From the sequence record MT764208.1: a stretch of 64,000 nt of DNA. One strand, written 5' to 3'. Made by a program: the position numbers and the translations under genes. The notes under the pieces are model-generated. The model was not told the origin of the DNA. It made no database searches and was given only the letters and a program-made list of their open reading frames with translations. Numbering within the stretch: the stretch's first letter is position 1; the number at the start of each line of letters is the position of its first letter. This DNA comes from Escherichia phage JEP8. Positions 373 through 55,746 of the stretch are shown in pieces.

Positions 373-620
373 GCTGCCCCCATTGGTTTGATAGTAACAG
401 AATCTAAAAGACCTTTGTTAGCCAGTTCGCGGCAAGTTTTCAGATCCGCAACTTCCCAGCCAGCCGCAATCAGGTTATCAATCAGGCTGTTAGCAACTTC
501 TTCGCTCATGAAAGAGCACTGTTTGCCGATGGTGTAGCGTACACGCTGTAATTTCAGTTTACGGAAGCCTTTAACGTTCAGGTCTTTAGCGATTTTCTTT
601 GCGGTTTCGATGTTAGCCAT
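369..620 (-). CDS. hypothetical small early protein (83 aa)
   Basis: ORF preceded by conserved GGAGAATC RBS and promoter cassette at 661-689. Confidence 0.55.
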   Translation of the reverse strand: MANIETAKKIAKDLNVKGFRKLKLQRVRYTIGKQCSFMSEEVANSLIDNLIAAGWEVADLKTCRELANKGLLDSVTIKPMGAA

Positions 621-660
621 TGTTTGATTCTCCTAAGTGGTATCTCGTCTTGATGGTTGT

Positions 661-689
661 ATTGTAGGGGAGTTATCCTCCCCTGTCAA
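661..689 (-). promoter_or_regulatory. early sigma70-type promoter TTGACA-N17-TACAAT with palindromic spacer
   Basis: spacer GGGGAGGATAACTCCCC; A/T-rich tract upstream; drives 369..620. Confidence 0.6.
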
Positions 690-703
690 CACTTTTTATA
701 AAA

Positions 704-871
704 TTATTTGTTAATTTCTGGTGCGTTGCTAGGATAGTAACCTTCTTTAACTCCGAGGTATTTCGCAACCATCCCTACAATCTTCTGTGCTACTACAATG
801 TCAAATTTCAGATAATCTTCGCCGTGGGTTTCAATGATATATGCTTCACATGCTGCTTTAGTCTCGAACAT
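704..871 (-). CDS. hypothetical 55-aa protein, copy 1 of a duplicated gene (MFETKAACEAYIIETHGEDYLKFDIVVAQKIVGMVAKYLGVKEGYYPSNAPEINK)
   Basis: below the 60-aa track cutoff; hand-translated; near-identical to 3962..4129; RBS and promoter cassette upstream. Confidence 0.5.
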   Translation of the reverse strand: MFETKAACEAYIIETHGEDYLKFDIVVAQKIVGMVAKYLGVKEGYYPSNAPEINK

Positions 872-904
872 TTTGATTCTCCTATTTCGTTTCGGTATGT
901 GTGT

Positions 905-933
905 ATTATAGGGGATCTCCCGATCCCCGTCAA
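905..933 (-). promoter_or_regulatory. early promoter TTGACG-N17-TATAAT with palindromic spacer GGGATCGGGAGATCCCC
   Basis: consensus hexamers, 17-bp spacing; drives 704..871. Confidence 0.65.
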
Positions 934-947
934 CAACTTTTTTAAAA

Positions 948-1229
948 TTATTCGTGATTAGTTTCGATGTTGTGCATTTTGCACCAATTCAGCCAATCAC
1001 CCAGATCCTGATAGTTAATGCTTTTATCTGCTGCCATCGTTTTTGTCTTGATACCCATATGTGCGTTATGAGTAAGCATTTTTACAGTGAACTCAATTTT
1101 ATCGCCTTTAGCTTTAACATCAACCAGTTTGGTCCACTGGCTACCAGCGCCGCGAATGTTCATACCAACGATGTTTCCGATGTATGCTTCTTTGTTTTTC
1201 AGGATTTCGGTTGCTTTGATGAATTTCAT
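948..1229 (-). CDS. hypothetical small early protein (93 aa)
   Basis: ORF with upstream promoter cassette (1263-1291) and RBS. Confidence 0.5.
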   Translation of the reverse strand: MKFIKATEILKNKEAYIGNIVGMNIRGAGSQWTKLVDVKAKGDKIEFTVKMLTHNAHMGIKTKTMAADKSINYQDLGDWLNWCKMHNIETNHE

Positions 1230-1262
1230 TTTTGATTCTCCAGTTCGTTTCGGTATGGGTGT

Positions 1263-1291
1263 ATTATGCTATGTTCTTACTTTGGTGTCAA
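1263..1291 (-). promoter_or_regulatory. early promoter TTGACA-N17-CATAAT
   Basis: consensus -35, 17-bp spacer; drives 948..1229. Confidence 0.55.
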
Positions 1292-1299
1292 CAACTTTT

Positions 1300-1569
1300 T
1301 TAGATATTTTCAGAAATAAATTTTAAAACTTGACGTAAATGTTTCTCATCTTTGATAGTCGCCGGAAGTTCTTCTTTTACTTCCTGTGCAAGATAGATAT
1401 TTCCGTTCCAAGTGAAAGATCCGTCTTCGTTTACGCGATAGCTGAACATCCACTCGCAATCATTTTCGATTTCATATACACACAGAAGAGTGTAATCTTC
1501 AAAGCTATTGAGTTCAAGGTCGAAGCCGTGACGTTTTGCAAAGTTGGTAGTGGTTTTAGTCAGTGCCAT
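1300..1569 (-). CDS. hypothetical small early protein (89 aa)
   Basis: ORF with upstream promoter cassette (1610-1638) and RBS. Confidence 0.5.
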   Translation of the reverse strand: MALTKTTTNFAKRHGFDLELNSFEDYTLLCVYEIENDCEWMFSYRVNEDGSFTWNGNIYLAQEVKEELPATIKDEKHLRQVLKFISENI

Positions 1570-1609
1570 TGTTTGATTCTCCTAAGTGGTATCTCGTTTC
1601 GATGTGTGT

Positions 1610-1638
1610 ATTATGCTATAGGCGTGATCTGGTGTCAA
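1610..1638 (-). promoter_or_regulatory. early promoter TTGACA-N17-CATAAT
   Basis: drives 1300..1569. Confidence 0.55.
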
Positions 1639-1660
1639 TGCCTTTTTTAAAATTTTATGC

Positions 1661-1689
1661 AATAAAAAAGCCGACACTAAGGTCGGCTA
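1661..1689 (-). terminator. intrinsic terminator after 1696..2004
   Basis: hairpin AGCCGAC-N6-GTCGGCT followed by T6 on the minus strand. Confidence 0.6.
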
Positions 1690-1695
1690 ATAAAA

Positions 1696-2004
1696 TCATT
1701 TAGACAAATAATCATTCTGTGCAATCCGGTCGGCGTATGCTGGTGTTATGTCAATCGCCAGCACTTTAACGCGTGCTTTCTTGCGACCTGGGTTTTCTCG
1801 TAACCAGTGCTCATGGCCGTGAACATTTTTATACTGCGATGCTTCTTCGAAGGTACGGATCGGACCTGGGTAATCAGCGTAAAGGATCTCTAGATCTTCG
1901 GTGATGTAAAAATATACATCGTAATTGCTGTTCTCTAGCTTAAGCAGAGACTTTCGGAACATTGGGAGATTTTCGCGGGTAAATTCAAAGATATTATCTT
2001 TCAT
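1696..2004 (-). CDS. hypothetical protein, member 1 of a six-member paralog family (H-x-H-W ... V-L-A-[VI]-D-[VI] motif)
   Basis: shares ordered motifs Y-x-Y-[IV]-x-E/D, HxHW and VLA(V/I)D(V/I) with 2422, 2705, 3426, 4198, 4757; terminator hairpin downstream. Confidence 0.55.
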   Translation of the reverse strand: MKDNIFEFTRENLPMFRKSLLKLENSNYDVYFYITEDLEILYADYPGPIRTFEEASQYKNVHGHEHWLRENPGRKKARVKVLAIDITPAYADRIAQNDYLSK

Positions 2005-2052
2005 AGTATTATCCTCAATAGTTGGATGAAAAGGGGCTTAACGCCCCGTATA

Positions 2053-2340
2053 TTAAAACAGTCCTTCCTGTACACCGTAGTAGAGTTCATCGCTGATAAT
2101 TTCATTAATGCGACGGTGTGCATATTCCTGATTTGCGAAGTTGTCAGCAAGTTCTACTTTAGTTTCGCCGTCATGAGTCCATTTAGTGATAACTTTACCA
2201 TCGGCAAATTTGAAGTTGAACTCTTTAGCTACCGCATCGCGTACCAGACGTGCGAACTTGTTGTTACGGATTGCATTATCGGTTTCGTGTGCAGCGTGAG
2301 CAAATTTGTTAACTTTCAGAGTGATGGTGATGTATGCCAT
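2053..2340 (-). CDS. hypothetical small early protein (95 aa)
   Basis: ORF with promoter cassette 2387-2415 and RBS; AKEFN segment weakly shared with 5346..5657. Confidence 0.5.
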   Translation of the reverse strand: MAYITITLKVNKFAHAAHETDNAIRNNKFARLVRDAVAKEFNFKFADGKVITKWTHDGETKVELADNFANQEYAHRRINEIISDELYYGVQEGLF

Positions 2341-2386
2341 AATTTGATTCTCCTAGTTAGAAAGTGTATCTCGTTTCGATGGGTGT

Positions 2387-2415
2387 ATTATGCTATACAC
2401 CCGATCTTATGTCAA
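2387..2415 (-). promoter_or_regulatory. early promoter TTGACA-N17-CATAAT
   Basis: drives 2053..2340. Confidence 0.55.
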
Positions 2416-2421
2416 CACTTT

Positions 2422-2700
2422 TTATAAAATAATTTTTTGATATTTTTCTATGATGTTTGTGTAGGTCACATCAACCGCGAGCACCGTTGCTTCGAATCCA
2501 CCGTTTAGCCAATGGCTATGATCGTGATCGTTAAAGAAACCGAGGCCAGTGCGAAGACCTTCTTTATATTCGGCGCGTACATTCAGTTTGTCGTCGATAA
2601 ACAGATAAAACCATGAATTTTTACTAGGATTGATGATACAACCTTTCAGATTAGGGAGAATATCACGACTAAGAATAAACTTATCACCTACTTTGAACAT
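2422..2700 (-). CDS. hypothetical protein, paralog family member 2
   Basis: start trimmed to ATG at 2700 (MFKVGDKF...), preceded by GAGGA; motif HDHSHW...VLAVDV. Confidence 0.55.
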   Translation of the reverse strand: MFKVGDKFILSRDILPNLKGCIINPSKNSWFYLFIDDKLNVRAEYKEGLRTGLGFFNDHDHSHWLNGGFEATVLAVDVTYTNIIEKYQKIIL

Positions 2701-2704
2701 AATA

Positions 2705-3025
2705 TTAGTCCTCACTTATAAGGTCAAACCAATTGTTTTTCGCATAATGCTTAATGCGTGCTTGATCTGCTTCCGCTGGTGATAGATTCCATGCAACCAC
2801 TACAACTTCTGACGCATCGTCATCCGTTTTTGATACCCAATGATTGTGATTCATACAGTTATTTGCTATCGAGTGAGCAAATGATTTCATCACTGGAGAC
2901 GTATAATCATAGTAACGGATTTTCAGATTTTCATCAACATACAAGTAGATCGTATACGGCTTATATTCAGTAACCAATAACAGACAGTTACGCAATTCTG
3001 GGAAAATCTTTTTAGTTAATTTCAT
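2705..3025 (-). CDS. hypothetical protein, paralog family member 3
   Basis: motif NHNHW...VVVVAW; same length class and orientation as other members. Confidence 0.5.
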   Translation of the reverse strand: MKLTKKIFPELRNCLLLVTEYKPYTIYLYVDENLKIRYYDYTSPVMKSFAHSIANNCMNHNHWVSKTDDDASEVVVVAWNLSPAEADQARIKHYAKNNWFDLISED

Positions 3026-3239
3026 ATTCTAGTTCTCCGTAATACACAGTAATCCATTTTTCTTCATACTTTGTATCTTTCCAACACACAATCCCGTTTA
3101 CTGTGCAATCTTTGGAATTGACGAATGATTCATATTGTTCTGCATCTTCCATCATTGCATGAGCGGTCTTTTCATCGAATATATCGCAGATCGCTTTATA
3201 TGCTCGATAATCTTTAAATTTGCTCATAATTAACACCAC
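3012..3239 (-). CDS. hypothetical protein, MSKFK tandem paralog A
   Basis: N-terminus MSKFKDYRAY and central IVCWK shared with adjacent 3230..3445. Confidence 0.5.
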   Translation of the reverse strand: MVLIMSKFKDYRAYKAICDIFDEKTAHAMMEDAEQYESFVNSKDCTVNGIVCWKDTKYEEKWITVYYGELEYEIN

Positions 3240-3445
3240 TCAAGAGTTTTTGAAAACACATCTATCCATTGTTGAGTATATGCGGTTTCTTTCCATGACA
3301 CAATACCAGTCGAATAATGGTTTTTGTTTCCAGAAAAGGACGGGCATTTTGATGCATCTTCCATCATCTTTTCGGCGAACTCTGGTGCGTATACTCGCAA
3401 AATCTGTTGATATGCTTTGTATTCTTTAAATTTGCTCATAATCAT
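3230..3445 (-). CDS. hypothetical protein, MSKFK tandem paralog B
   Basis: N-terminus MSKFKEYKAY and central IVSWK; tandem to 3012..3239. Confidence 0.5.
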   Translation of the reverse strand: MIMSKFKEYKAYQQILRVYAPEFAEKMMEDASKCPSFSGNKNHYSTGIVSWKETAYTQQWIDVFSKTLEWC

Positions 3446-3704
3446 TCACTACCTTATCAGCTTCTTTTGTTGTTTTTACATCAACTGCGATAACTCGTAA
3501 AGGTTCGTCATGGTTCCACCAGTGGTCATGAATATCGGCTTGTGATTTATCACCAAAGGAATCACGAATATCATTTTTACATTTATAGCTAATGTGACCG
3601 TCATAGTCAACATAAAGGTAATTATCGAAAATCGGCGTTTTTAAGATCATACCGAAAAATCTTTCTTTGTGTGTCTTATCCAGCGTTGCAGTAATTCGCA
3701 TCAT
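3426..3704 (-). CDS. hypothetical protein, paralog family member 4
   Basis: motif HDHWW...VIAVDV. Confidence 0.55.
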   Translation of the reverse strand: MMRITATLDKTHKERFFGMILKTPIFDNYLYVDYDGHISYKCKNDIRDSFGDKSQADIHDHWWNHDEPLRVIAVDVKTTKEADKVVNDYEQI

Positions 3705-3716
3705 AATATATTCCTC

Positions 3717-3896
3717 TTAGAAAGGGATGGTCATTTCTTGAGCTTGTATGTTCTCGTTAGGATTAAACTTCATCCAACCGATATTGTCTACCAGCATATT
3801 TACATTTTTATCATATCCTACGTGAGTAGTCAACACTAAATGTGCTTTACCTTCAACGATGATTTCCATGTACTTCTGAACTTCGATAGCTTTCAT
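3717..3896 (-). CDS. hypothetical 59-aa protein
   Basis: hand-translated (MKAIEVQKYMEIIVEGK...); conserved RBS and promoter cassette 3930-3958 upstream. Confidence 0.45.
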   Translation of the reverse strand: MKAIEVQKYMEIIVEGKAHLVLTTHVGYDKNVNMLVDNIGWMKFNPNENIQAQEMTIPF

Positions 3897-3929
3897 TTTT
3901 GATTCTCCGTTTGTTGTCTTGATGGGAGT

Positions 3930-3958
3930 ATCTTACTACTCCCTTTAATCATTGTCAA
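3930..3958 (-). promoter_or_regulatory. early promoter TTGACA-N17-TAAGAT with GGGAGTAGTAAGATACTCCC hairpin
   Basis: drives 3717..3896; palindrome overlaps -10. Confidence 0.5.
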
Positions 3959-3961
3959 CTA

Positions 3962-4129
3962 TTATTTGTTAATTTCTGGTGCGTTGCTTGGATAGTAACC
4001 TTCTTTAACACCCAGATATTTTGCAACCATTCCGGTGATCTTCTGTGCTACTACGATATCGAATTTCAGGTAGTCTTCACCGTGGTTTGCTACAATGTAT
4101 GCTTCGCATTCTGCTTTAGTCGGGAACAT
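3962..4129 (-). CDS. hypothetical 55-aa protein, copy 2 of duplicated gene
   Basis: track ORF trimmed to internal ATG (MFPTKAECEAYIVANHGEDYLKFDIVVAQKITGMVAKYLGVKEGYYPSNAPEINK); about 85-90 percent nt identity to 704..871 by eye. Confidence 0.5.
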   Translation of the reverse strand: MFPTKAECEAYIVANHGEDYLKFDIVVAQKITGMVAKYLGVKEGYYPSNAPEINK

Positions 4130-4163
4130 TTTTGATTCTCCTATATCTCGTTGGTATGTGTGC

Positions 4164-4192
4164 ATTATAGGGGATCACCGATCCCCTGTCAA
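4164..4192 (-). promoter_or_regulatory. early promoter TTGACA-N17-TATAAT with palindromic spacer GGGGATCGGTGATCCCC
   Basis: drives 3962..4129. Confidence 0.65.
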
Positions 4193-4197
4193 CAACT

Positions 4198-4491
4198 TTA
4201 TAATGCTTTATATGCGTATTTCATAAATTTGTCTGCCACTTCATTGGCATGTTCAGCTTCTACGCCTGATTCGAGAACAATAGCTAGGTCGGTTTCGTCA
4301 TTCCCGCCGTACCAATGATTTGATGTTCGATTTTTTTCAATTGGAAATTGGTCACTTTTATCTGTGCGACAAAATACATCTAAATGCTCGTCGATGTAAA
4401 AGATCCAATCTTCATAAAGAATAACGGTATTAGCCAGATTTTTATTGCCTTCAACGAAAGGTTCGGCTACAAACAAATTAGTATGTTCCAT
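4198..4491 (-). CDS. hypothetical protein, paralog family member 5
   Basis: start trimmed to ATG 4491 (GAGGA upstream); motif SNHWYGG...LAIVLE. Confidence 0.5.
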   Translation of the reverse strand: MEHTNLFVAEPFVEGNKNLANTVILYEDWIFYIDEHLDVFCRTDKSDQFPIEKNRTSNHWYGGNDETDLAIVLESGVEAEHANEVADKFMKYAYKAL

Positions 4492-4507
4492 AGTAATTTC
4501 CTCAAAA

Positions 4508-4699
4508 TTATACAGCTTCGTAAACTTCCCAATGTCCAACACCAGCACGCTTAACGAAAAGGTTTTCTTTGATGTTATTCATAAACGTCTGGATGGATTT
4601 AATGCGGTTTGAAGGTTTCCATTCTTCGTTGGCATTGCGTCGATACATCATAACATTACCAGTTCGCTTATATTCAGCAACCATTTTAAGACCACACAT
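4508..4699 (-). CDS. hypothetical small protein (63 aa)
   Basis: ORF between family members; putative promoter 4751-4778 upstream. Confidence 0.4.
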   Translation of the reverse strand: MCGLKMVAEYKRTGNVMMYRRNANEEWKPSNRIKSIQTFMNNIKENLFVKRAGVGHWEVYEAV

Positions 4700-4750
4700 A
4701 ATATTATCCTCAATTTGTGGGAGAGTATTACCCCTCCCAATGATTGTTAT

Positions 4751-4778
4751 GTTATATCACACAAAATGGCGTGTCAAT
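4751..4778 (-). promoter_or_regulatory. putative early promoter TTGACA-N16-TATAAC
   Basis: weaker -10; upstream of 4508..4699. Confidence 0.35.
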
Positions 4779-5077
4779 GCTTCTTTTGCGGTTCCGCTAA
4801 GACTTTCGATCTCGCCTGGCATAACATCAACCGCCAGAACTTCTACAACATCCTCGGACCCTAACCAGTGAGTATGACCTTTGTAGAACTTGATAACCAG
4901 ACTACCTTCCTCGTCCCATTTAACGCTATCGCTAGCCCACCACACATCACCGTCGATAAAGTTGATGTAAAGCACACTACGCCACATTGAATTAATTACT
5001 TTCAATACTGCGCCTTTCATCTCTTCCACGGTATGGTCTTCCATTTTGAAGACCTCACCTACCTGAACTTTTGCCAT
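4757..5077 (-). CDS. hypothetical protein, paralog family member 6
   Basis: motif GHTHWLG...VLAVDV. Confidence 0.55.
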   Translation of the reverse strand: MAKVQVGEVFKMEDHTVEEMKGAVLKVINSMWRSVLYINFIDGDVWWASDSVKWDEEGSLVIKFYKGHTHWLGSEDVVEVLAVDVMPGEIESLSGTAKEALTRHFV

Positions 5078-5094
5078 TTAGTCACCTCTCTTTA

Positions 5095-5274
5095 TTACAT
5101 AACAATCACGCCAGCCGTTGAAAGTTGATGTTTCAACTGAGCATTTTCTGCTACCGTCAAATCAATGATTTCTTGTGACGCTGCAATCATATATCCATTG
5201 GTGATATTGTTTTGCATCAGTTCAATGGTTTCTTCGTTGTAGCGGATTTTAGCGATGATTTCGTTGAAGTTCAT
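5095..5274 (-). CDS. hypothetical 59-aa protein
   Basis: track ORF trimmed: N-terminal MLTGDHRSPIL is read-through of the promoter cassette; real start MNFNEII... after GGAGAATC. Confidence 0.45.
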   Translation of the reverse strand: MNFNEIIAKIRYNEETIELMQNNITNGYMIAASQEIIDLTVAENAQLKHQLSTAGVIVM

Positions 5275-5308
5275 GATTGATTCTCCTAGTTCGTTTCGGT
5301 ATGTGTGT

Positions 5309-5337
5309 AGTATAGGGGATCGGTGATCCCCTGTCAA
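5309..5337 (-). promoter_or_regulatory. early promoter TTGACA-N17-TATACT with palindromic spacer GGGGATCACCGATCCCC
   Basis: drives 5095..5274. Confidence 0.6.
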
Positions 5338-5345
5338 CAACTTTT

Positions 5346-5657
5346 TTAAAGTTTTTCCATGATAACGGTCATAATTACATCTTCTGCGCGAGCGGTCAGA
5401 TTATCAGCGTCAGCATGTGGGCGGTTGGTTGTTACAGAGATAACACCGTTGCGCACTGGTTTGATATTGATATCAAGATGATCCGCGAAACGTTCGCCAG
5501 TTACAGAATGAATTTTGGTGTTAAATTCTTTTGCCAGTGCCTTGCGAACTTCACGAATCAGGGTAGCGTTTTTCAGTTGGTTCTCCGCGCTCATGGTCTT
5601 CTGGGTGTTAATGGTTCCGTCGAAGTCAATCATTGGCAGCGTTACGATGTATTTCAT
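5346..5657 (-). CDS. hypothetical small early protein (103 aa)
   Basis: ORF with promoter cassette 5703-5731 and RBS. Confidence 0.5.
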   Translation of the reverse strand: MKYIVTLPMIDFDGTINTQKTMSAENQLKNATLIREVRKALAKEFNTKIHSVTGERFADHLDINIKPVRNGVISVTTNRPHADADNLTARAEDVIMTVIMEKL

Positions 5658-5702
5658 TTTTGATTCTCCGTTTAAGAAAGTGTGTTTCGTTTTGATGTGT
5701 GT

Positions 5703-5731
5703 AGTATAGGGGATACGTGATCCCCTGTCAA
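5703..5731 (-). promoter_or_regulatory. early promoter TTGACA-N17-TATACT with palindromic spacer GGGGATCACGTATCCCC
   Basis: drives 5346..5657. Confidence 0.6.
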
Positions 5732-5744
5732 CAACTTTTTTGAA

Positions 5745-6221
5745 TTATTTTTCTTGATGCTCGCGCTCGTACTTTTCGAAATAAAATTCTACTGGCTGGT
5801 CATGAATTGACAGCAAGCCAAAGCGTTTAGCCGCTCGCAATCCCATATTGCGCTGAATGTACTTCTGGAAGTTCTCGCGTATACACTTACGCCAGTATTC
5901 TAAGCCCATACAGCTTTTATAAAGATTGCATTGCACACACGCCGGATTCATGTTATCAAGTATATCATGCTCCGGTTTATGCATTCCTACGACCTTATAC
6001 TTCCACAATCCATCATCATTACGGGCAATTCGTCCATTTTCATCATAGACTACCTTTGAGCGTCGCAATACTGGTTTGATGTGGTCTGCGTGCCAGCGAT
6101 CCCCTAGTTCCTCGCCACAATAGGCACAACGTCCACCGTATTTCATTTTCAGGATCTGGCGTTGCTCTTTCTTTGACAATTTTTTAGGTTTAGGGGCTTT
6201 CGCCCCTTCATTATCACACAT
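5745..6221 (-). CDS. HNH-family endonuclease (free-standing)
   Basis: C-x2-C ... H-A-D-H-I-K-P ... C-V-Q-C-N signature; directly downstream of ligase; true start may be internal Met (MKYGGR...). Confidence 0.6.
   Translation of the reverse strand: MCDNEGAKAPKPKKLSKKEQRQILKMKYGGRCAYCGEELGDRWHADHIKPVLRRSKVVYDENGRIARNDDGLWKYKVVGMHKPEHDILDNMNPACVQCNLYKSCMGLEYWRKCIRENFQKYIQRNMGLRAAKRFGLLSIHDQPVEFYFEKYEREHQEK
6192..6207 (-). promoter_or_regulatory. RNA stem-loop GGGGCGAAAGCCCC (GAAA tetraloop) at the ligase 3' end
   Basis: same element as at 18921-18936 and 31041-31056. Confidence 0.45.
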
Positions 6222-13111: not shown

Positions 13112-13510
13112 TTAACTTTCCAGAATATCGCGAGCTTCGTTACGCTCCTTGATGATTTTCAGGACAAATTCCAGTTTTTCTTTGTTCAGTGTTCCATTTT
13201 CCATTGCTTCTTTGACGGTAAACACTCCGCCACCTTGCCCGTATACAGTGACAGTGATTTCACCTAACATCGTAGTATGAAAACCGCCAATTTTCGGTGA
13301 TTCGAAAGAAACAATTACCTCGCGGACAGTATTACCGTCGTTGATTTCTGAGAGGGTAATGTCGTTTTTGTAGGCGGTTGCTTTAACCATACGGATCAGC
13401 ATAGTCTGATCTGGGGAGATGGTCATTTTGTCCATTGCATGTTGCAATGCAGCGTAACCGAAAACTTTAACGAAGTCCAGAACGTCTTTGCGAGTTTGAA
13501 ATTTAATCAT
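13112..13510 (-). CDS. hypothetical protein (132 aa)
   Basis: ORF followed by a terminator hairpin at 13087-13104. Confidence 0.5.
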   Translation of the reverse strand: MIKFQTRKDVLDFVKVFGYAALQHAMDKMTISPDQTMLIRMVKATAYKNDITLSEINDGNTVREVIVSFESPKIGGFHTTMLGEITVTVYGQGGGVFTVKEAMENGTLNKEKLEFVLKIIKERNEARDILES

Positions 13511-13543
13511 CTTGATACTCCTTAGTTGTTTTGGTATGGGAGT

Positions 13544-13572
13544 ATCTTACTACTCCCGTGATATGCTGTCAA
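13544..13572 (-). promoter_or_regulatory. early promoter TTGACA-N17-TAAGAT (GGGAGTAGTAAGATACTCCC type)
   Basis: upstream of 13112..13510. Confidence 0.5.
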
Positions 13573-13580
13573 CTGCTTTT

Positions 13581-13730
13581 TTATGCAACCGCAAACATCA
13601 ACATTTGAACATTCTTGGCTGTCTGGCTTTCAAAGTTCTGACATTCTTTGATAATGTCCTCTACTTTCTCGCCGGAGAACTCCGCGTAAATTTCGATTGC
13701 CATTTTCAGTACCGCGTCAAAGTTGTTCAT
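13581..13730 (-). CDS. hypothetical 49-aa protein
   Basis: hand-translated (MNNFDAVLKMAIEIYAEF...); conserved RBS and promoter cassette upstream. Confidence 0.35.
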   Translation of the reverse strand: MNNFDAVLKMAIEIYAEFSGEKVEDIIKECQNFESQTAKNVQMLMFAVA

Positions 13731-13768
13731 TTGATTCTCCTTAAAGTGTATTTCGTTTCGATGGGGGT

Positions 13769-13797
13769 ATATTACTATCCCCGTTTCATGCTGTCAA
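13769..13797 (-). promoter_or_regulatory. early promoter TTGACA-N17-TAATAT
   Basis: drives 13581..13730. Confidence 0.5.
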
Positions 13798-14016
13798 CTA
13801 CTTTTTAATGACAAGTTCGAATTTTGCTACCTTGCGTCCTCGTTTATTGAAAGCAACCCACGGACGGTTTTCAATGTAGAACAATTCTTCACCAATAATG
13901 AATATTGGCTGATTGTAAAGGCGACCCATCAGGTCACGCTGGCGAATGGTAGTAGATTCGTATACTTCGCCTACTACAAAGTGTTTGCTGATAGAGTCGG
14001 TGCAAGTAAATTTCAT
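13798..14016 (-). CDS. hypothetical small protein (72 aa)
   Basis: ORF with promoter cassette 14050-14078 and RBS. Confidence 0.5.
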   Translation of the reverse strand: MKFTCTDSISKHFVVGEVYESTTIRQRDLMGRLYNQPIFIIGEELFYIENRPWVAFNKRGRKVAKFELVIKK

Positions 14017-14049
14017 TTTGATTCTCCTTTGTTTCGTTTCGATGGGAGT

Positions 14050-14078
14050 ATCTTACTACCCCCGTTATTCAGTGTCAA
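14050..14078 (-). promoter_or_regulatory. early promoter TTGACA-N17-TAAGAT
   Basis: drives 13798..14016. Confidence 0.5.
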
Positions 14079-14085
14079 CTACTTT

Positions 14086-14304
14086 TTACTTGTTGTATTC
14101 ATTCCACCATTGGGTGAGCTTATCAATTATTTTTGTGTTTCTATCCAACTTCTCCCACCGTTTTCTAGGGTTTATCAACCGGAATAGGTAAGGTGTACTT
14201 GTTAAGTGAATTTGGTCAATGTAGTGATTGATGTACTGCTTTTCGATTCTAAGTTTCATCTTTTTACGATGAAAATATGCAATGACTTGTTCTTCTGTTT
14301 CCAT
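14086..14304 (-). CDS. hypothetical small protein (72 aa)
   Basis: ORF with promoter cassette 14329-14357. Confidence 0.45.
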   Translation of the reverse strand: METEEQVIAYFHRKKMKLRIEKQYINHYIDQIHLTSTPYLFRLINPRKRWEKLDRNTKIIDKLTQWWNEYNK

Positions 14305-14328
14305 ATGTTCCTCCGTTTCGATGTGTGT

Positions 14329-14357
14329 ATTATGCTATGGCAAGATCAGATTGTCAA
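14329..14357 (-). promoter_or_regulatory. early promoter TTGACA-N17-CATAAT
   Basis: drives 14086..14304. Confidence 0.55.
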
Positions 14358-14365
14358 CACCCAAT

Positions 14366-14395
14366 AACAAAAAAGTCGCCATTATGGGCGACTTT
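14366..14395 (-). terminator. intrinsic terminator after HAD-like gene
   Basis: hairpin AAGTCGCC-N5-GGCGACTT followed by TTTTT. Confidence 0.6.
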
Positions 14396-16438: not shown

Positions 16439-16561
16439 TTATATGCCGTATTCATCCTCAACGTAGTAGCAACTCCCATCATGTCGAGCATCATATACAT
16501 CACCGACAACAAAGCTATCAGCTAGCTCAAAATCTACAGCAACACATTTTAATTTGGTCAT
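16439..16561 (-). CDS. hypothetical 40-aa protein
   Basis: track ORF trimmed (upstream part is promoter cassette read-through). Confidence 0.3.
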   Translation of the reverse strand: MTKLKCVAVDFELADSFVVGDVYDARHDGSCYYVEDEYGI

Positions 16562-16592
16562 AATAAAATCCTCACTTGTTTTTGATGGTTGA

Positions 16593-16621
16593 ATTATAGC
16601 GGGGATTTCTCCCCGCGTCAA
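16593..16621 (-). promoter_or_regulatory. early promoter TTGACG-N17-TATAAT with palindromic spacer CGGGGAGAAATCCCCGC
   Basis: between nrdA and nrdB. Confidence 0.6.
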
Positions 16622-16629
16622 CACTTATT

Positions 16630-18873
16630 TTACAGCTTGCAAGATGAGCACTCGCTAGAGTCTTCCGTACCATCTGCACCGTCGCGAACGTTCGCATAAT
16701 ACAGGGTTTTCAGACCGTAATATTGAGCAAACAACATATCATCTAAAACATCAGCAATATCGACTTTACCAGTCTTATAAGTGCTTGGATCGTAGGATGT
16801 ATTGGAACTAATCGCCTGATCCACAAACTTCTGCATGATCGCTGCCAGTGTCAGATAAGGCTTGTTACCTTTCTTGATCAGTGTCCAAAGCAGGTCAATA
16901 ACATCAGCATTATTCTCTACGTTCGGAATGACCTGATTAAATTGCCCTTCTTTCGATCCTTTAACCGATACAATCCCGCGAGGCGGTTCAATACCGTTTG
17001 TGCTGTTAGATACCTGAGAAGACGACTCACACGGCATCAGCGCCGAAAGTGTACTGTTACGAATGCCATATTTTTTCAGGTCTTCGCGCAGTTCTTCCCA
17101 ATCCATCTCATACACAGGATCAACCAGTTCATCTACTGTCTTTTTGTACCAGTCGATAGGAAGTTCACCGCGACCATAGCGTGTTTCGTGCATCAGTTCG
17201 CAAGCACCCTTCTCTTTAGCCAGTTGCACACTAGCCTTAATCAGAGCATATTGCAAGCGTTCAAACGTTTTATGCGTAAACTCGTTAGCGTCTTCATATG
17301 TGAAGAAATTATCTGCTAGATATGATGCAAAGTTAGTCACACCAACACCCAGAGAGCGACGTTTTTTGGCTGTCAGAGCTTGTTCTACAGGATAATCCTG
17401 GTAATCTAACAGGTTGTCAAGTGCACGCACCATAACCATAGCGATCCGCTCTACTTCTTCCATATTTTCGATATCAAAGTTTCCTAAAACATATGCTGCC
17501 AAAGTACATAGGCTGATCTCTGAATCATCACGACCCATCGGTTTAGTAGGCAGAGCAATTTCACAACACAGGTTAGATTGTTTAATCGGTGCTACATTAC
17601 GAATAAACGCCCCGTGATTGTTCATGTTGTCTGTGAACGTTGGGTAGATTCGACCAGTGTTAAAACGTTCAATTGCCACCGCTAAAAACAGGTCTTCGGC
17701 TTTAACACGAGTTTTACGAACACTCGGATCTTTTTCCAGTTTTTCGTAAAGCTGACGGAAACCTTCCTCATCTCGGAAGTATAGATCCCACAACAAGCCA
17801 CCTGCAACATCTGGACTAAACAGAGTAATGTAATCCCGTTTAAGGAATCGCTCTACCATCAGGTTATTAATCTGTACGCCGTAATCAAGATGACGAATGC
17901 GGTTATCTTCCACCCCCTTATTGTTCTTTAACACAATCAGACTTTCAAACTCTAAATGCCACATTGGGTAATAGAGAGTCGCCGCCCCGCCACGAATACC
18001 GCCTTGTGAGCATGACTTAACAGCAGTCTGAAAATGTTTCCAGAATGGGATAACGCCAGTATGACGAACTTCACCATGCCCGATCTTAGATCCTTCCGCG
18101 CGAATCATGCCAGCGTTGATACCGATACCAGCACGCTTGCTAATATACTTGATGATTGCATTTGCTGTTTCGTTGATGCCCTGCAATGAGTCATCACTTT
18201 CAATCACAACACACGAACTAAATTGGCGTGTTGGTGTACGCACACCTGCCATAATCGGAGTAGGCAGAGAGATTTGCTTATTCGCAACAGCATTATAAAA
18301 ATCAATCACATGTTCAAGTCGATTTTCTGTCTCTTCTTGATGCAAGCACATACCGATCAGCATATACGCAAATTGCGGTGTTTCGATGATTTTCTTAGTG
18401 CTGCGATCCTGAACAAGATATTTCTCTTTTAACTGCATAGCACCAGCATAGGTCATTTTAAAATCAAGTTTATGGTCGATGAATTTCTCCAGATATTCCA
18501 CTTCTTCACGGGAATACTTTTGTAGAATTTCACGATCATATTTTCCGGTTGCAATATTACGCTCAATATGGCTGTAAAAATCAATCGGTTGGAATTGACC
18601 GTATACTGATTTGCGAAGCGCGAACATTGCAAGGTTACTTGCTACATATTGATAATCTGGTGTTTCTACAGTAATGTTATCTGCGGCGACCTTAATCAAT
18701 ACTTTCTGGATATCATTGGTAGACATACCTTCTGTCAGAAGTGGTTCAACCATATCAAACAATTCATATGGATCAACGTTATGACCTTCGGCTGCCGCTT
18801 CCAGAATTTTCATTACTTTTTCTTTTTCAAACGGAACAGTCAGACCGGAAGACTTAACAACATTTTTAATCAT
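16630..18873 (-). CDS. nrdA: ribonucleotide reductase class Ia large (alpha) subunit
   Basis: 747 aa with N-terminal ATP-cone and C-terminal cysteines; similar to T4/E. coli NrdA. Confidence 0.93.
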   Translation of the reverse strand: MIKNVVKSSGLTVPFEKEKVMKILEAAAEGHNVDPYELFDMVEPLLTEGMSTNDIQKVLIKVAADNITVETPDYQYVASNLAMFALRKSVYGQFQPIDFYSHIERNIATGKYDREILQKYSREEVEYLEKFIDHKLDFKMTYAGAMQLKEKYLVQDRSTKKIIETPQFAYMLIGMCLHQEETENRLEHVIDFYNAVANKQISLPTPIMAGVRTPTRQFSSCVVIESDDSLQGINETANAIIKYISKRAGIGINAGMIRAEGSKIGHGEVRHTGVIPFWKHFQTAVKSCSQGGIRGGAATLYYPMWHLEFESLIVLKNNKGVEDNRIRHLDYGVQINNLMVERFLKRDYITLFSPDVAGGLLWDLYFRDEEGFRQLYEKLEKDPSVRKTRVKAEDLFLAVAIERFNTGRIYPTFTDNMNNHGAFIRNVAPIKQSNLCCEIALPTKPMGRDDSEISLCTLAAYVLGNFDIENMEEVERIAMVMVRALDNLLDYQDYPVEQALTAKKRRSLGVGVTNFASYLADNFFTYEDANEFTHKTFERLQYALIKASVQLAKEKGACELMHETRYGRGELPIDWYKKTVDELVDPVYEMDWEELREDLKKYGIRNSTLSALMPCESSSQVSNSTNGIEPPRGIVSVKGSKEGQFNQVIPNVENNADVIDLLWTLIKKGNKPYLTLAAIMQKFVDQAISSNTSYDPSTYKTGKVDIADVLDDMLFAQYYGLKTLYYANVRDGADGTEDSSECSSCKL

Positions 18874-21106: not shown

Positions 21107-21436
21107 TCAAATCAGTTTGAAATAGTTTTCGTTTACATTTTCTTCTGTGATTGCTGTCTTAAATTCTTGACCGTTATCCGGTGTGATGAAATAACGGTCA
21201 GAATAATCACGAAAACGTTTTAAGTGAGATACCCCAACATTAACACCATTTTCCCAAAAACGAAAGGTAATCATTTTTGGTTCATATCGATAGTCGCTGG
21301 TTAACACAGTACCATCCCCGCGACGGGCTTCATAAACCGTAATACATTCACGATTGGCGGCTTTTAGGCATTCTTCAATAGTGCCGCACGAGATAATACT
21401 TACTTTTTCATCTACGATTTGTTCTACAGTCCACAT
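21107..21436 (-). CDS. hypothetical protein (109 aa after trimming)
   Basis: start trimmed to ATG 21436 downstream of promoter 21468-21495. Confidence 0.5.
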   Translation of the reverse strand: MWTVEQIVDEKVSIISCGTIEECLKAANRECITVYEARRGDGTVLTSDYRYEPKMITFRFWENGVNVGVSHLKRFRDYSDRYFITPDNGQEFKTAITEENVNENYFKLI

Positions 21437-21467
21437 AATATAATCCTCTCTTTGTTTCGATATGTGC

Positions 21468-21495
21468 ATTATACACTATTGCGTTACGCTGTCAA
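21468..21495 (-). promoter_or_regulatory. early promoter TTGACA-N16-TATAAT
   Basis: drives 21107..21436. Confidence 0.55.
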
Positions 21496-23112
21496 CTCTT
21501 TTTCAAAAGTTTTTACGATATACATGATAGTGCTCAATTCAGACGGCGCTACTGTTTCTGTGTAGCCATCCGGCATATCTTCTTTTGAGATATAGGAAGT
21601 TTTACCTTTCATCGCTTCCTTGATCTTGTTCTCTAAGTCTAAGATCTTTTGACCGTCTTGTAAAGTCAATTCATAAAAGATCTCGTGGTTGAATTTGGAA
21701 AGTCGAGATTGACCTCCAATTCGTTCTTTTGTTGTTCTATTGGTTATTCCAAATTTAACGCCAACGAATATTTTTTCTTTTATTAGTTTTTGAATATACA
21801 ATACTCCTTTTTTTAAGGTATTATATCCATATTGTGCGCATTTAGGACAACGAGTTCCTTTCTGAAAGTTTGTTATTGTCGGTGTAAATTCATGGCCTTC
21901 ACTACACACCAAATTTAACTTTGTAGACACACCGTTCCATTCTCCAATAAATCCATTAAATATGATATTTTCTTTTTCGAAAATTGGTTTAAGTCTTTCA
22001 AGATATTCTTCTTTTGATAATGCATAATTATTTGCACATTTAGGACAACGAGTTCCATTCTGAAAACTGGATATGATAGGAGTGAAATTGTGGCCTTCAC
22101 AACACACCAAATCCAATTTTGTTACGTTACCTTTCCACTCACCAACGATTCCATTACAGGTTATATTTTCTTTAATAAATATCGGTGCTAATTTTTCGAA
22201 ATATTCTTCCTTTGGAATCAATTTACGTTCTCTTAATTTAAGAGCTTTACATTTCGGACAGCGGCGACCTTGTTGAAAAACTGCTATGCTCGGGGTGTAA
22301 TTGTGTTTTTCATTACACACCAAATTCAGCCTAGTTCTGCTACCTTTCCACTCACCAACGATTCCATTACAGGTTATATTTTCTTCAACGAAGATTGGTT
22401 TTAATCTTTTAAAATATTCTTCTTTTGATATTTTTCTACTGTTTCTCCAGTTGATAATACCGCAGGTCGAACACCTATTACCGGATTGAAAACCGTTTAC
22501 AGTCGGTGTAAATTTATGGCCTTCACTACACAATAAATTCATTTTTGTTGTGCTTCCGTTCCATTCTCCAATAAATCCATTAAATACGATATTTTCTTTT
22601 TCGAAAATTGGTTTAAGTCTTTCAAGATATTCTTCTTTTGATAGTAATTTCAATTCTCTTAATTTAAGAGCTTTACATTTAGGACAACGACTTCCGACCT
22701 GAAATGCTGTTATCGTCGGAGTAAATTCATGATCCTCACAACATGTTAAGTTTAGTTTTGTGTGCACGCCTTTCCATTCTCCGACGAATCCATTAAACTT
22801 TATATTTTCCTCAATAAAGATTGGTTTAAGTTTTTTATAATATTCTTCTTTTGATAGGGCATAATTATTTGCGCATCTAGAGCATCGTTTACCTTTTTGA
22901 AAATCTGATATTCTTGGTGTAAATTCATGTCCTTCACAACACACCAAACCCAATTTTGTTACGTTACCTTTCCACTCACCAACAAATCCATTAAATACGA
23001 TATTTTCTTTTTCGAAAATTGGTTTAAGTCTTTCGTAATATTCCAATGGGCTAATCGAGTTATAATTTTTCTTAACCCATTCAATCTCATGCGCCTTACG
23101 TACCAACATCAT
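21484..23112 (-). CDS. six-repeat Cys/His-rich protein with C-terminal T5orf172/GIY-YIG-like domain
   Basis: six ~70-aa tandem units (EEY.E.LKPIF..ENI.FNG..GEW.G...KLNL.C.EGH.FTP.I..FQ.G.RC..C) then GVLYIQKL...VGVKFGITNRTTKERI; start trimmed to ATG 23112. Confidence 0.6.
   Translation of the reverse strand: MMLVRKAHEIEWVKKNYNSISPLEYYERLKPIFEKENIVFNGFVGEWKGNVTKLGLVCCEGHEFTPRISDFQKGKRCSRCANNYALSKEEYYKKLKPIFIEENIKFNGFVGEWKGVHTKLNLTCCEDHEFTPTITAFQVGSRCPKCKALKLRELKLLSKEEYLERLKPIFEKENIVFNGFIGEWNGSTTKMNLLCSEGHKFTPTVNGFQSGNRCSTCGIINWRNSRKISKEEYFKRLKPIFVEENITCNGIVGEWKGSRTRLNLVCNEKHNYTPSIAVFQQGRRCPKCKALKLRERKLIPKEEYFEKLAPIFIKENITCNGIVGEWKGNVTKLDLVCCEGHNFTPIISSFQNGTRCPKCANNYALSKEEYLERLKPIFEKENIIFNGFIGEWNGVSTKLNLVCSEGHEFTPTITNFQKGTRCPKCAQYGYNTLKKGVLYIQKLIKEKIFVGVKFGITNRTTKERIGGQSRLSKFNHEIFYELTLQDGQKILDLENKIKEAMKGKTSYISKEDMPDGYTETVAPSELSTIMYIVKTFEKELTA
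21800..23055 (-). repeat. six tandem ~210-bp coding repeats inside the 542-aa gene
   Basis: repeat units evident in protein and DNA (recurring tttccactcaccaacgattccattacaggttatattttc-type segments). Confidence 0.7.
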
Positions 23113-23139
23113 TTTATCCTCCGTTGTTTCGATGTGTGC

Positions 23140-23167
23140 ATTATACATTACATCATCAGCATGTCAA
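23140..23167 (-). promoter_or_regulatory. early promoter TTGACA-N16-TATAAT
   Basis: drives the 542-aa repeat-protein gene. Confidence 0.55.
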
Positions 23168-23191
23168 CACCTTTTTCATAAAATTTTAGGC

Positions 23192-23220
23192 AATAAAAAA
23201 GCCTCCCCGAAGGGAGGCTT
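23192..23220 (-). terminator. intrinsic terminator after gene 32
   Basis: hairpin AGCCTCCC-TTCG-GGGAGGCT followed by T6ATT. Confidence 0.7.
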
Positions 23221-40007: not shown

Positions 40008-40766
40008 TTACTTGCAAACGTATTGGTCTACATCAATTGCTCCACCGAATGTAGGATGACGTTTTTCAAATCGAATAGTTCCGTCGTTTGGTTCGAAAAC
40101 GGAGTATTCATATAGATCTTTCTTGCCAACATTCTTATAAAACCCGCCTTTAGTCATAACGGTTTCTTGTACGTTTGCTTTGTGTACGTTGTATTCATCA
40201 ATGTATACAAAATCAACCATCTTCCCATTTTTAATTGTTACTTTAAGATCACCCGGTTGATTTCCATATTTGGCATACAGTGGCGCTTCTTTAATTTTTG
40301 TGGAAATTCCATCTTTCATACTCCACTCATAACGAACGGTGCATTGATAGGTAAAAGTTTCGACCTTCGGTTCTTCTACCACTTTTGCTTCCTGTTTCTG
40401 TTGTTCTTCTTCAACCTTTGCAGAAGTCTCTGAATCGCTTTCTGACGAGGTTTCTTCTTTAGGTAATACATTCATCAAGTTTTGGATTTGAGCGTTATAT
40501 ACAGCCTCCAGTGGCTGAATCTGCCCGATATTGATCATTGTATCACGAACAGTTTTATTCCAGTTTCGTTGCTCTTGTTTCAGAGACGGATCAATCTTAA
40601 CAGCCTTAACATACACTTCATGAAGTTTAGAGTCCAGTGCGGAGATAGACTCATTAGCACAAATAAACTTCTCTGATTTGGTAGTAGCTTTAGCGCAATC
40701 AAAGGACGCAGCATTAGCACCGAAAGCAGTAGCGGAAAGAACGATAGCAGCGATAATGTTTTTCAT
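40008..40766 (-). CDS. secreted DUF1311 / LprI-like (lysozyme-inhibitor-like) domain protein
   Basis: signal peptide MKNIIAAIVLSATAFGANA; then DCAKATTKSEKFICANESISALDSKLHEVY...QRNWNKTVRD typical of DUF1311; extra ~130-aa C-terminal domain. Confidence 0.55.
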   Translation of the reverse strand: MKNIIAAIVLSATAFGANAASFDCAKATTKSEKFICANESISALDSKLHEVYVKAVKIDPSLKQEQRNWNKTVRDTMINIGQIQPLEAVYNAQIQNLMNVLPKEETSSESDSETSAKVEEEQQKQEAKVVEEPKVETFTYQCTVRYEWSMKDGISTKIKEAPLYAKYGNQPGDLKVTIKNGKMVDFVYIDEYNVHKANVQETVMTKGGFYKNVGKKDLYEYSVFEPNDGTIRFEKRHPTFGGAIDVDQYVCK

Positions 40767-40800
40767 AATATATTCCTCAATGTTTTGTCTTGATGGGAGT

Positions 40801-40829
40801 ATCTTACTACTCCCTTAATCCTGTGTCAA
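40801..40829 (-). promoter_or_regulatory. early promoter TTGACA-N17-TAAGAT (GGGAGTAGTAAGATACTCCC type)
   Basis: upstream of the DUF1311 gene. Confidence 0.5.
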
Positions 40830-40836
40830 CTAATTT

Positions 40837-40992
40837 TTAAATTTCTTCTACAGTAAAGTCTTCAATGTTGTTGTGCTCGGCGAACGTTGCCAGACCAGCA
40901 TTCCATGCATCATCCTCAGAGAAGAATACACCGTAACGTTCATATCCTTTAGCGCCTTCAAATTTAACCATTAATTTGTGAGTATGTTTCAT
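40837..40992 (-). CDS. hypothetical 51-aa protein
   Basis: track ORF trimmed (MLTGDRRSPIL is promoter-cassette read-through); start MKHTHKLMV... Confidence 0.4.
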   Translation of the reverse strand: MKHTHKLMVKFEGAKGYERYGVFFSEDDAWNAGLATFAEHNNIEDFTVEEI

Positions 40993-41022
40993 TTTGATTC
41001 TCCTTCGTTGTCTTGATGAGTT

Positions 41023-41051
41023 TAGTATAGGGGATCGCCGATCCCCTGTCA
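41023..41051 (-). promoter_or_regulatory. early promoter TTGACA-N17-TATACT with palindromic spacer GGGGATCGGCGATCCCC
   Basis: drives 40837..40992. Confidence 0.6.
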
Positions 41052-41061
41052 ACAACTATTT

Positions 41062-41274
41062 TTAATTTTTACCCGCTCGTGCATTAATACGCATTTTCTG
41101 CATAGCCATGATCTGGCTTACTGCTTCTTCTTTACGTTTTTGCGTGATAACGTGACCAGATTCCGCAAACTCTCCCGCAACTTCTTCTACAATCTCGCGA
41201 ACTTGAGAACGTCCAAAGATGCGGTTTCCTTCGTAGCTCATAAATTCAGTCACTACTTGCTCAATAGATTTCAT
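41062..41274 (-). CDS. hypothetical 70-aa protein
   Basis: trimmed to ATG downstream of promoter 41304-41332. Confidence 0.4.
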   Translation of the reverse strand: MKSIEQVVTEFMSYEGNRIFGRSQVREIVEEVAGEFAESGHVITQKRKEEAVSQIMAMQKMRINARAGKN

Positions 41275-41303
41275 GTGATTCTCCTTTCGTTTGGTATGGG
41301 AGT

Positions 41304-41332
41304 ATAATACTACTCCCATTTCTTTACGTCAA
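41304..41332 (-). promoter_or_regulatory. early promoter TTGACG-N17-TATTAT
   Basis: drives 41062..41274. Confidence 0.5.
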
Positions 41333-41335
41333 CAA

Positions 41336-41497: not shown

Positions 41498-41501
41498 ATT
41501 A

Positions 41502-55743: not shown

Positions 55744-55746
55744 CAC

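Follow-up and report, generated by a model that had tools for sequence, protein, structure and literature searches.

We analysed a 64,000-nucleotide stretch of Escherichia phage JEP8 (MT764208.1), referred to here as the window, in which a ~90-bp module composed of a promoter, often a hairpin, and a Shine-Dalgarno (SD) sequence recurs ahead of small open reading frames (ORFs). The window belongs to a Krischvirus, an RB49/phi1-like coliphage (RB49-like, Straboviridae), and is 98% identical to ELT4/ECD7. Most of what follows concerns positions 620-5745, which correspond to phi1 ORF190-ORF212 and RB49 ORF190c-212c and lie beside the DNA ligase gene, gp30.

Gene content of the locus

Window positions 1-7500 align end to end with phi1 ORF187-gp30 at 95% identity, and the region is colinear also with RB49 ORF189c-gp30. 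BLAST found ~58 Krischvirus genomes that match the region at 94-98% nucleotide identity and in the same order. An apparent 2-kb insertion in ECD7 and GEC-3S (7.5 kb vs 5.6 kb) was an artefact of a second, repeat-driven BLAST piece, and these loci are colinear as well. Gene content at the locus is of the phi1 type, with ORF192, ORF195/196 and ORF211 all missing. The remainder of the window carries gp31, cd, pseT, rnlA, denA, nrdAB, td, frd, gp32, gp59 and rnh, together with tail fibre genes 34-37, t, gp52 and rIIB, as expected for the genus.

ORF212 (5745-6221, minus strand), which sits between the DNA ligase gene and the first module, encodes an HNH/endonuclease-VII-like protein (Pfam HNH; PHROG 2118, E 7e-55). 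Nine further proteins submitted to Pfam and PHROGs (ORF210, 208, 206, 205, 202, 198, 197, 194 and 193) matched no Pfam family and only PHROGs of "unknown function". The sequence-only reading described the modules as driving single small genes. This holds for about five of the ten (ahead of ORF210, 205, 194, 193 and 191); modules are named here by the position of the -35 T on the minus strand, and 3958, 5337 and 2415 head six, two to four, and two genes, respectively.

Several of the small genes are related to one another. ORF205 and ORF191 are paralogues in which promoter and gene were duplicated as a whole unit (4199-3961 vs 940-703), with 86% nucleotide and 89% amino acid identity. Other small ORFan families on the minus strand of 369-5657 include ORF201/ORF202 (44% identity), ORF198/ORF210 (both PHROG 7474), and ORF197/199/200/203/208, which have the motif HW...V(L/I)A(V/I)D in common.

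Copy number and anatomy of the module

An nhmmer profile built from 11 seed copies and run on the window gave 23 matches at E<0.01, the best at 5e-20, all on the minus strand, as the sequence-only reading had it. Nine full modules lie in 620-5745 (5731, 5337, 4192, 3958, 2415, 1638, 1291, 933 and 689), and a tenth, divergent promoter at 4777 has its hairpin downstream of the -10; the original count of at least ten was thus roughly right. All sites named outside this region (13.5-14.4, 16.6, 21.5, 23.1, 40.8-41.8, 48.9-49.3, 55.7, 56.3 and 61.3 kb) were recovered, although those at 56.3 and 61.3 kb, despite strong promoters, have a different leader and match the profile weakly (E 0.22 and 3.1). 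A match at 59086 (E 1e-4) could be assigned neither an SD nor an ATG and was left out of the module count.

The consensus order is an A/T tract, TTGACA, 17 bp, TATAAT, ACACCCAT, an A/C-rich leader, GGAGAATCAAA and ATG. The arrangement can be read by eye on the minus strand of 400-6000, where the TATAAT-like hexamer leads into ACACACAT, and a short stretch rich in A and C separates this from GGAGAATCAAA and ATG. An alignment of 22 copies shows no variation in TTGAC or in a CAT located 5-7 nt past the -10, and very little in the A-tract and GGAG; the A/T tract upstream of the -35 has the consensus AAAAAnTTTAAAAAAGTTG. In 17 of 25 copies the upstream gene reaches its stop codon 0-14 nt ahead of the -35, and its end thus runs into the A/T tract. 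GGAGAATCAA followed by ATG occurs in all nine full modules of the region, whereas internal genes of the module-led operons have GAGG-type SDs instead. The modules are intergenic, with ten copies in 5 kb of small ORFs and none in the plus-strand tail-fibre block.

The minus strand holds all twelve of the best matches to the sigma-70 consensus in 1-7000 (10-12 of 12 positions); ten are the module promoters, each scoring in that range with a 17-bp spacer. Weak sigma-70-like matches are common in this A/T-rich genome (29 vs 20.5 expected in shuffles), which might suggest that the repeats reflect chance or composition. Such an origin is refuted by profile E values reaching 5e-20 on one strand only, by the 16 occurrences of the 11-mer GGAGAATCAAA (one mismatch or fewer) in the window, every one of them on the minus strand, compared with 1.85 expected in shuffles, and by conservation of the elements at matching positions in over 50 related genomes. 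The GEC-3S record likewise has 10 promoters annotated at the positions of the modules described here.

Relation to published promoter-early stem-loops

Promoter-early stem-loops (PeSLs) were defined in the hyperplastic region ORF190-212 of phi1/RB49 by Arbiol et al. 2010 (Genome Biol Evol 2:140; PMC2839356), who counted ~50 per genome, mostly in hyperplastic regions and upstream of ORFans. As described there, the stop codon of the upstream gene lies in an A/T tract, next come a consensus sigma-70 promoter and a polyG/polyC stem-loop, which is usually placed between the two boxes or across the -10, and the element closes with an SD and an ATG (PMC2839356). The sequence-only reading had likened the modules to the promoter-early stem-loops of T4-type hyperplastic regions, and the locus is in fact colinear with the phi1 ORF190-ORF212 region of that paper. 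We conclude that the repeated modules are very probably PeSLs, the composite cassettes for early transcription found in T4-like coliphages of the RB49/phi1 type (Krischvirus). They are already known: sister phages have them at precisely this locus, where they were described and in part characterised, and the observation is therefore correct but not new.

Three modules have orthologues among the PeSLs that were tested by experiment: 5731 corresponds to PeSL211/210, 4192 to 206/205 and 933 to 193/19x. Promoter activity was demonstrated with lacZ for PeSL206/205, and the stem-loop of PeSL211/210 is terminator-like and lowers downstream lacZ expression about as much as rrnB T1 (PMC2839356). Mini-circles arising from PeSL-by-PeSL recombination around ORF192 and ORF210, at this same locus, were also detected experimentally (PMC2839356). 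The concept was later extended to other T4-like phages by Comeau et al. 2014 (PMC4122927).

An Rfam scan of the whole window gave no matches at the gathering threshold. Scans of IMG/VR with two variants, a spacer-hairpin promoter and a -10-overlapping hairpin, returned Krischvirus relatives only, as confirmed by BLAST, and so gave no sign that the cassettes have spread to unrelated phages. A literature search for transcript-level data on RB49-type early promoters found no Krischvirus transcriptome paper.

Hairpin pairing and the DNA-site alternative

A perfect hairpin is present in 18 of 26 promoters, at -4.6 to -20.7 kcal/mol, and of 20 cores folded and compared with dinucleotide shuffles, 14 reach z <= -1.8. 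Two types occur. The first fills the spacer (7 of 26 promoters; e.g., GGGGATC-N3-GATCCCC, GGGGAG-gataa-CTCCCC and GCGGGGA-gaaa-TCCCCGC), and the second overlaps the -10 and discriminator (~9 copies; e.g., GGGAGTA-gtaaga-TACTCCC, GGGTGTAT-agcata-ATACACCC and GGGGATAT-atcata-ATATCCCC). The earlier placement of the palindrome within the spacer therefore suits GGGGATC-N3-GATCCCC, which occupies all 17 bp, but not GGGAGTAgtaagaTACTCCC (GGGAGTA...TACTCCC), which spans the spacer end, the -10 (TAAGAT) and the discriminator.

Because the register of the hairpin relative to the promoter differs among copies, distinct variants were compared directly and not column by column, using 55 distinct promoter cores from the window and from ten loci of nine relatives. 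Loops vary freely (GATAA vs ACACC; ACC, GGT, GGC, GCC) while stem pairing is kept, and a double compensatory change (G-C/A-T to T-A/G-C) separates GGGGATAT/ATATCCCC from GGGTGTAT/ATACACCC. Paired stem substitutions with free loops argue, at the level of sequence, for selection on pairing itself.

The palindromes lie within core promoter elements or straddle them, and a protein bound there would block access of RNA polymerase. They might instead be DNA-level sites: an operator through which a phage or host protein switches off the early promoters, or a cruciform or hairpin target of a structure-specific nuclease or recombinase in an integron-like mobilisation. The array is headed by the HNH/EndoVII-like ORF212, and GATC, the Dam site, is enriched in the spacers. 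The 29-bp promoter cores contain 13 GATC sites against ~4 expected, about three-fold, often at spacer positions 4-7 and also in modules without a GGGGATC hairpin; in the whole window GATC is over-represented 1.5-fold, and the genus encodes a Dam methylase. This excess may reflect shared ancestry or methylation-sensitive promoters. The stems, however, differ from one another (GGGGATC, GGGGAG, CGGGGA, GGGAGTA, GGGTGTAT, GGGGATAT) and their position varies, which is ill-suited to a single sequence-specific protein, and with stems of 6-8 bp and loops of 3-6 nt the palindromes are on the short side for extruding a cruciform. These phages have no known integrase or dedicated recombinase (PMC2839356), and the hybrid crossovers described below fit plain homologous recombination. 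We consider a DNA-level site quite improbable. A hairpin recognised as DNA by a phage structure-specific nuclease (ORF212 being the candidate) that actively starts cassette excision or insertion, integron-like without an integrase, seems more improbable still. Since the stems differ in sequence and in register, a sequence-specific DNA-binding role is unlikely; a structure-specific one is conceivable. Variation of the stems with retention of pairing favours selection for the hairpin as such over a sequence-specific operator.

Insertions and deletions among relatives

When the window was aligned with nine relatives, five indels were found, four of which have a breakpoint in a module or at its edge. 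ELT3 and SFHK24 lack ORF210 and carry in its place one hybrid module with the left part of 5731 and the right part of 5337. A hybrid module whose crossover lies near the -35 marks the loss of ORF191-187 in MIZ4. In RB49 and MIZ4, ORF195/196 is bounded on both sides by ~100-nt direct repeats, each consisting of a terminator and a promoter module; the window holds one copy of this repeat, to which the terminator at 1669-1688 belongs. ORF192 is inserted in RB49 and FL38 exactly at the A/T edge of module 933. The fifth case, ORF211, is taken up below; it may be noted here that this indel (RB49 2826-3176, reverse-complement; window 5761-5764) replaces the last codons of ORF212.

Crossovers in the hybrid modules sit in whichever stretch is identical, either from the A/T tract to the -35 or from the -10 to the SD, as expected for plain homologous recombination. 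The hybrid modules and the repeat-flanked insertion support the proposal that the repeats mediate gene shuffling, and the comparison of cassette and ORF content across related genomes, which had been suggested as a check, places indel breakpoints at modules in four of five cases. Through published experiments on orthologues and this comparison of relatives, the promoter and recombination roles are well supported.

Proposed function and points that weigh against it

We propose the following sequence of events. The A/T tract with the upstream stop codon would act as an UP-like element for a near-consensus sigma-70 promoter (TTGACA, 17 bp, TATAAT/CATAAT/TAAGAT) that unmodified host RNA polymerase could use at once after infection; promoter activity, published for the orthologue of module 4192, is presumed for the others. 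The probable start of transcription is the A (+1) of the invariant CAT, 5-7 nt past the -10, and a 20-45-nt A/C-rich unstructured leader and strong SD GGAGAATCAAA would then drive translation of the first small ORFan. The G-run/C-run hairpin, in the spacer or across the -10, may attenuate read-through transcripts or cap their 3' ends; since hairpins lie upstream of the probable start site, their RNA form would exist only in read-through transcripts from upstream. Finally, homologous recombination of the phage would cross over between modules, because these ~90-bp units are 60-95% alike and co-oriented, and promoter-plus-gene cassettes would be deleted, inserted or swapped.

Several observations weigh against this proposal. 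Promoter use and start site in this genome are inferred. Modules 1638, 1291, 14357, 41834 and 55743 lack a hairpin as judged by folding (z>0 or near 0; no structure in the first four) and a hairpin scan. No U-tract follows any module hairpin in the 620-5745 region (1-3 T in the next 8 nt; terminator scan of 1-7000). The hairpin at 16621 has 4 T in the next 8 nt, and in the whole window only copies 49292 and 56312 have a hairpin and T-run resembling an intrinsic terminator. The only canonical terminators in the region are those at 1669-1688 and 2033-2047. Judged by sequence, most module hairpins are not canonical intrinsic terminators, and the "terminator" half of the PeSL concept consequently rests on one published reporter construct. 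With hairpins that are non-canonical and missing from several modules, and with real terminators present separately, the terminator role is the weakest part of the proposal; the data would fit an attenuator, or a protector of the 3' ends of upstream mRNAs, just as well. As for recombination, ORF211 in RB49 and PHB13 was inserted beside module 5731 with no module on its left side, so cassette differences at the locus did not all arise PeSL by PeSL. In addition, viable indels must be intergenic and about half of the intergenic gaps hold a module, so that the association of breakpoints with modules could be partly passive.

Some of these observations also suit another account, in which the modules are strong early promoters that resemble each other through a shared sigma-70/translation-initiation optimum and through local duplication, the hairpin being a 3'-end stabiliser, an exonuclease barrier or a leftover, and recombination a passive by-product of the highly active T4-type recombination system. 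The lack of U-tracts, at least five modules that keep every other part without a hairpin, and the separate terminators all agree with it. Tandem paralogue families indicate that local duplication is common here, and recombination as a by-product was left open by the authors of the original study (PMC2839356). We regard this account as possible but do not favour it: compensatory changes keep the hairpins, in varied registers, which argues for selection, and the stem-loop orthologous to that of module 5731 reduced lacZ about as rrnB T1 does (PMC2839356). It differs from the PeSL interpretation in emphasis, by-product as opposed to function, and not in the identity of the element.

The Shine-Dalgarno block as a candidate RegB site

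The SD block GGAGAAUCAAA agrees at 10 of 11 positions with the RegB/S1 cleavage consensus GGAGRAYARAA, and does so in 13 modules. In T4 such sites are located in early-gene SDs (Durand et al. 2006, PMC1702504). GGAGAAUCAAA is found on all nine PeSL-led first genes of the region and not on internal genes. A RegB homologue is present in Krischvirus GEC-3S, outside this window, and is also reported for Krischviruses in PMC3014915; the RB49-type RegB is divergent, with 42% identity to T4 RegB. The arrangement is like that of the T4 RegB/S1 sites in that GGAGAAUCAAA lies in the SD of promoter-proximal early genes of a genus with a RegB homologue, and unlike it in having C at position 8 instead of the strongly preferred A. 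Cleavage of GGAGAAUCAAA by RegB at these sites, as a built-in shut-off of early mRNA, is a tentative suggestion about which we remain rather doubtful. If it occurs, each cassette may be a self-contained expression unit that is on at infection and off by RegB; unlike active mobilisation of the cassettes, this idea has some support in the sequence.

Features across the window

Coordinates of the modules and associated features are collected in Table 1.

Table 1. Promoter modules, terminators and associated motifs in the window; z values refer to folding against dinucleotide shuffles.
Feature	Position	Strand	Parts and hairpin	Support
PeSL upstream of ORF210 (orthologue of phi1/RB49 PeSL211/210)	5655..5756	-	-35 5726-5731, -10 5703-5708, SD GGAG 5666-5669, ATG 5657; spacer hairpin AGGGGAT-cacgt-ATCCCCT at 5708-5726	profile E 8e-17
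PeSL upstream of ORF209	5272..5362	-	-35 T 5337, ATG 5274; spacer hairpin GGGGATC-acc-GATCCCC	E 5e-20, z -2.98
Divergent promoter of ORF207, overlapping ORF208 3' end	4697..4802	-	TTGACA-17-TAACAT, -35 T 4777; hairpin TGGGAGGG-gtaata-CTCTCCCA past -10; GAGG-type SD; ATG 4699	sigma-70 scan
PeSL upstream of ORF205 (orthologue of PeSL206/205)	4127..4217	-	spacer hairpin GGGGATC-ggt-GATCCCC	12/12 sigma-70
PeSL upstream of ORF204, heading six genes (ORF204-199)	3894..3983	-	hairpin GGGAGTA-gtaaga-TACTCCC over -10 (TAAGAT)	profile, z -4.5
PeSL upstream of ORF198	2338..2440	-	-10 CATAAT; hairpin GGGTGTAT-agcata-ATACACCC over -10	z -3.3
PeSL-type promoter upstream of ORF194	1567..1663	-	no hairpin; preceded by canonical terminator (1669-1688)	z +1.0
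PeSL-type promoter upstream of ORF193	1227..1316	-	no hairpin	z +0.55
PeSL upstream of ORF191 (module 933, orthologue of phi1 PeSL between ORF193 and ORF191; ORF192 absent, as in phi1)	869..958	-	spacer hairpin GGGGATC-ggga-GATCCCC	
PeSL upstream of ORF190	618..714	-	spacer hairpin AGGGGAG-gataa-CTCCCCT	z -4.3
Canonical intrinsic terminator after ORF197	1669-1688	-	AGCCGACCTTAGTGTCGGCT + TTTTTT	terminator scan
Canonical intrinsic terminator after ORF198	2033..2047	-	GGGGCGTTAAGCCCC + TTTT	terminator scan
Four PeSLs, ORF225-229 hyperplastic block between denA and nrdB	13508..14382	-	-35 T 13572, 13797, 14078, 14357; hairpin overlaps -10 in three of four	
PeSL after nrdA	16559..16646	-	spacer hairpin GCGGGGA-gaaa-TCCCCGC	z -3.9
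PeSL-type promoter, downstream flank of ORF240	21434..21520	-	no strong hairpin	77% identity to copy 23110-23192
PeSL-type promoter upstream of ORF240	23110..23192	-		
Four PeSLs, ORF261-265 block	40764..41859	-	-35 T 40829, 41052, 41332, 41834	
PeSL-type promoter	48862..48949	-	hairpin GGGGATAT-atcata-ATATCCCC over -10	
Promoter with hairpin and U-tract	49228..49317	-	13-bp hairpin over -10, then U-tract	z -4.5
PeSL-type promoter	55683..55768	-	-10 CAATAAT type; no hairpin; SD GGAGAATCAAT	
Promoter followed by hairpin and T-run	56248..56337	-	GCCTCC-N12-GGAGGC + TTTTTT; hairpin just past -10, holds SD	
Strong promoter	61233..61315	-	TTGACA-17-TAAAAT; weak A/T hairpin	marginal profile match, E 3.1
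SD block GGAGAAUCAAA (others outside region)	623-633, 872-882, 1231-1241, 1572-1582, 2343-2353, 3898-3908, 4131-4141, 5659-5669	-		
Spacer GATC sites, examples	5719-5722, 5325-5328, 5318-5321, 4180-4183, 2403-2406, 1626-1629, 48912-48915			

Three of the outlying sites have further features. The phi1 ORF240 homologue (21484-23112, minus strand, 542 aa) contains six tandem repeats of ~213 nt (71 aa) and has a promoter module on either side (21452-21503 and 23124-23175), the two being paralogous and 77% identical. At 48.9 kb the module (48871-48949) falls within the final ~18 codons of the ORF upstream of it (49230-48871), and its sequence is therefore also coding. At 56250-56312 the 3' arm of the hairpin is the SD, and the T-run is followed by the ATG. 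Read-through transcripts would terminate here and have their SD hidden, and locally started transcripts probably lack the 5' arm, an arrangement that resembles the SD sequestering described for T4 gene e (PMC3014915).

Comparison with known systems

PeSLs are a published model for the shuffling of accessory genes in large lytic phages whose core genome stays intact, and one more Krischvirus isolate that carries them adds nothing conceptually. The modules resemble the PeSLs of RB49/phi1 in genus, locus (the ORF190-212 hyperplastic region), architecture and association with ORFan indels, and differ from them in nothing essential, gene content here being of the phi1 type. The recombination model first rested on two genomes and is strengthened by the newer ones (ELT3, SFHK24, MIZ4, FL38 and PHB13), which supply independent cases of hybrid PeSLs and of cassettes flanked by repeats at the type locus. 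Hairpins without U-tracts are a point additional to Arbiol et al. 2010, whose text was not searched for U-tracts. The resemblance of the SD block to a RegB/S1 site is a point missing from that paper; the words RegB, GATC, methyl and leader do not occur in its text (PMC2839356). That the SD block may double as a RegB shut-off site is, beside the non-canonical hairpins, of modest added value.

The PeSLs/PmSLs of PST/T4 and nt-1/KVP40 are likewise composites of promoter and stem-loop in hyperplastic regions near indels, but have another consensus (TTTACW...TAYWAT; TTGYVH...TAWWAT), A/T-richer stems, and stem-loops upstream of the promoter (PMC4122927). Compared with PmSLs and these other PeSLs, the elements described here have near-perfect sigma-70 promoters and are of the G(n)-loop-C(n) RB49 type.

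An array of small exchangeable genes with imperfect palindromes between them and circular intermediates is also reminiscent of integron cassettes. Those, however, are promoterless and are moved by a tyrosine-recombinase integrase at attC, whereas each cassette here has its own promoter. The first gene of the array codes for an HNH/EndoVII-like protein and not for an integrase (no integrase screen of the whole window was made), no integrase is known in these phages, and the crossovers look like ordinary homologous recombination. The likeness to lambdoid morons (Hendrix et al. 2000) lies in single accessory genes that have their own promoter and terminator and are placed between other genes. Morons do not share a flanking repeat, and illegitimate recombination is the presumed route of their insertion, whereas in the PeSL arrays the regulatory module is itself the recombination substrate.

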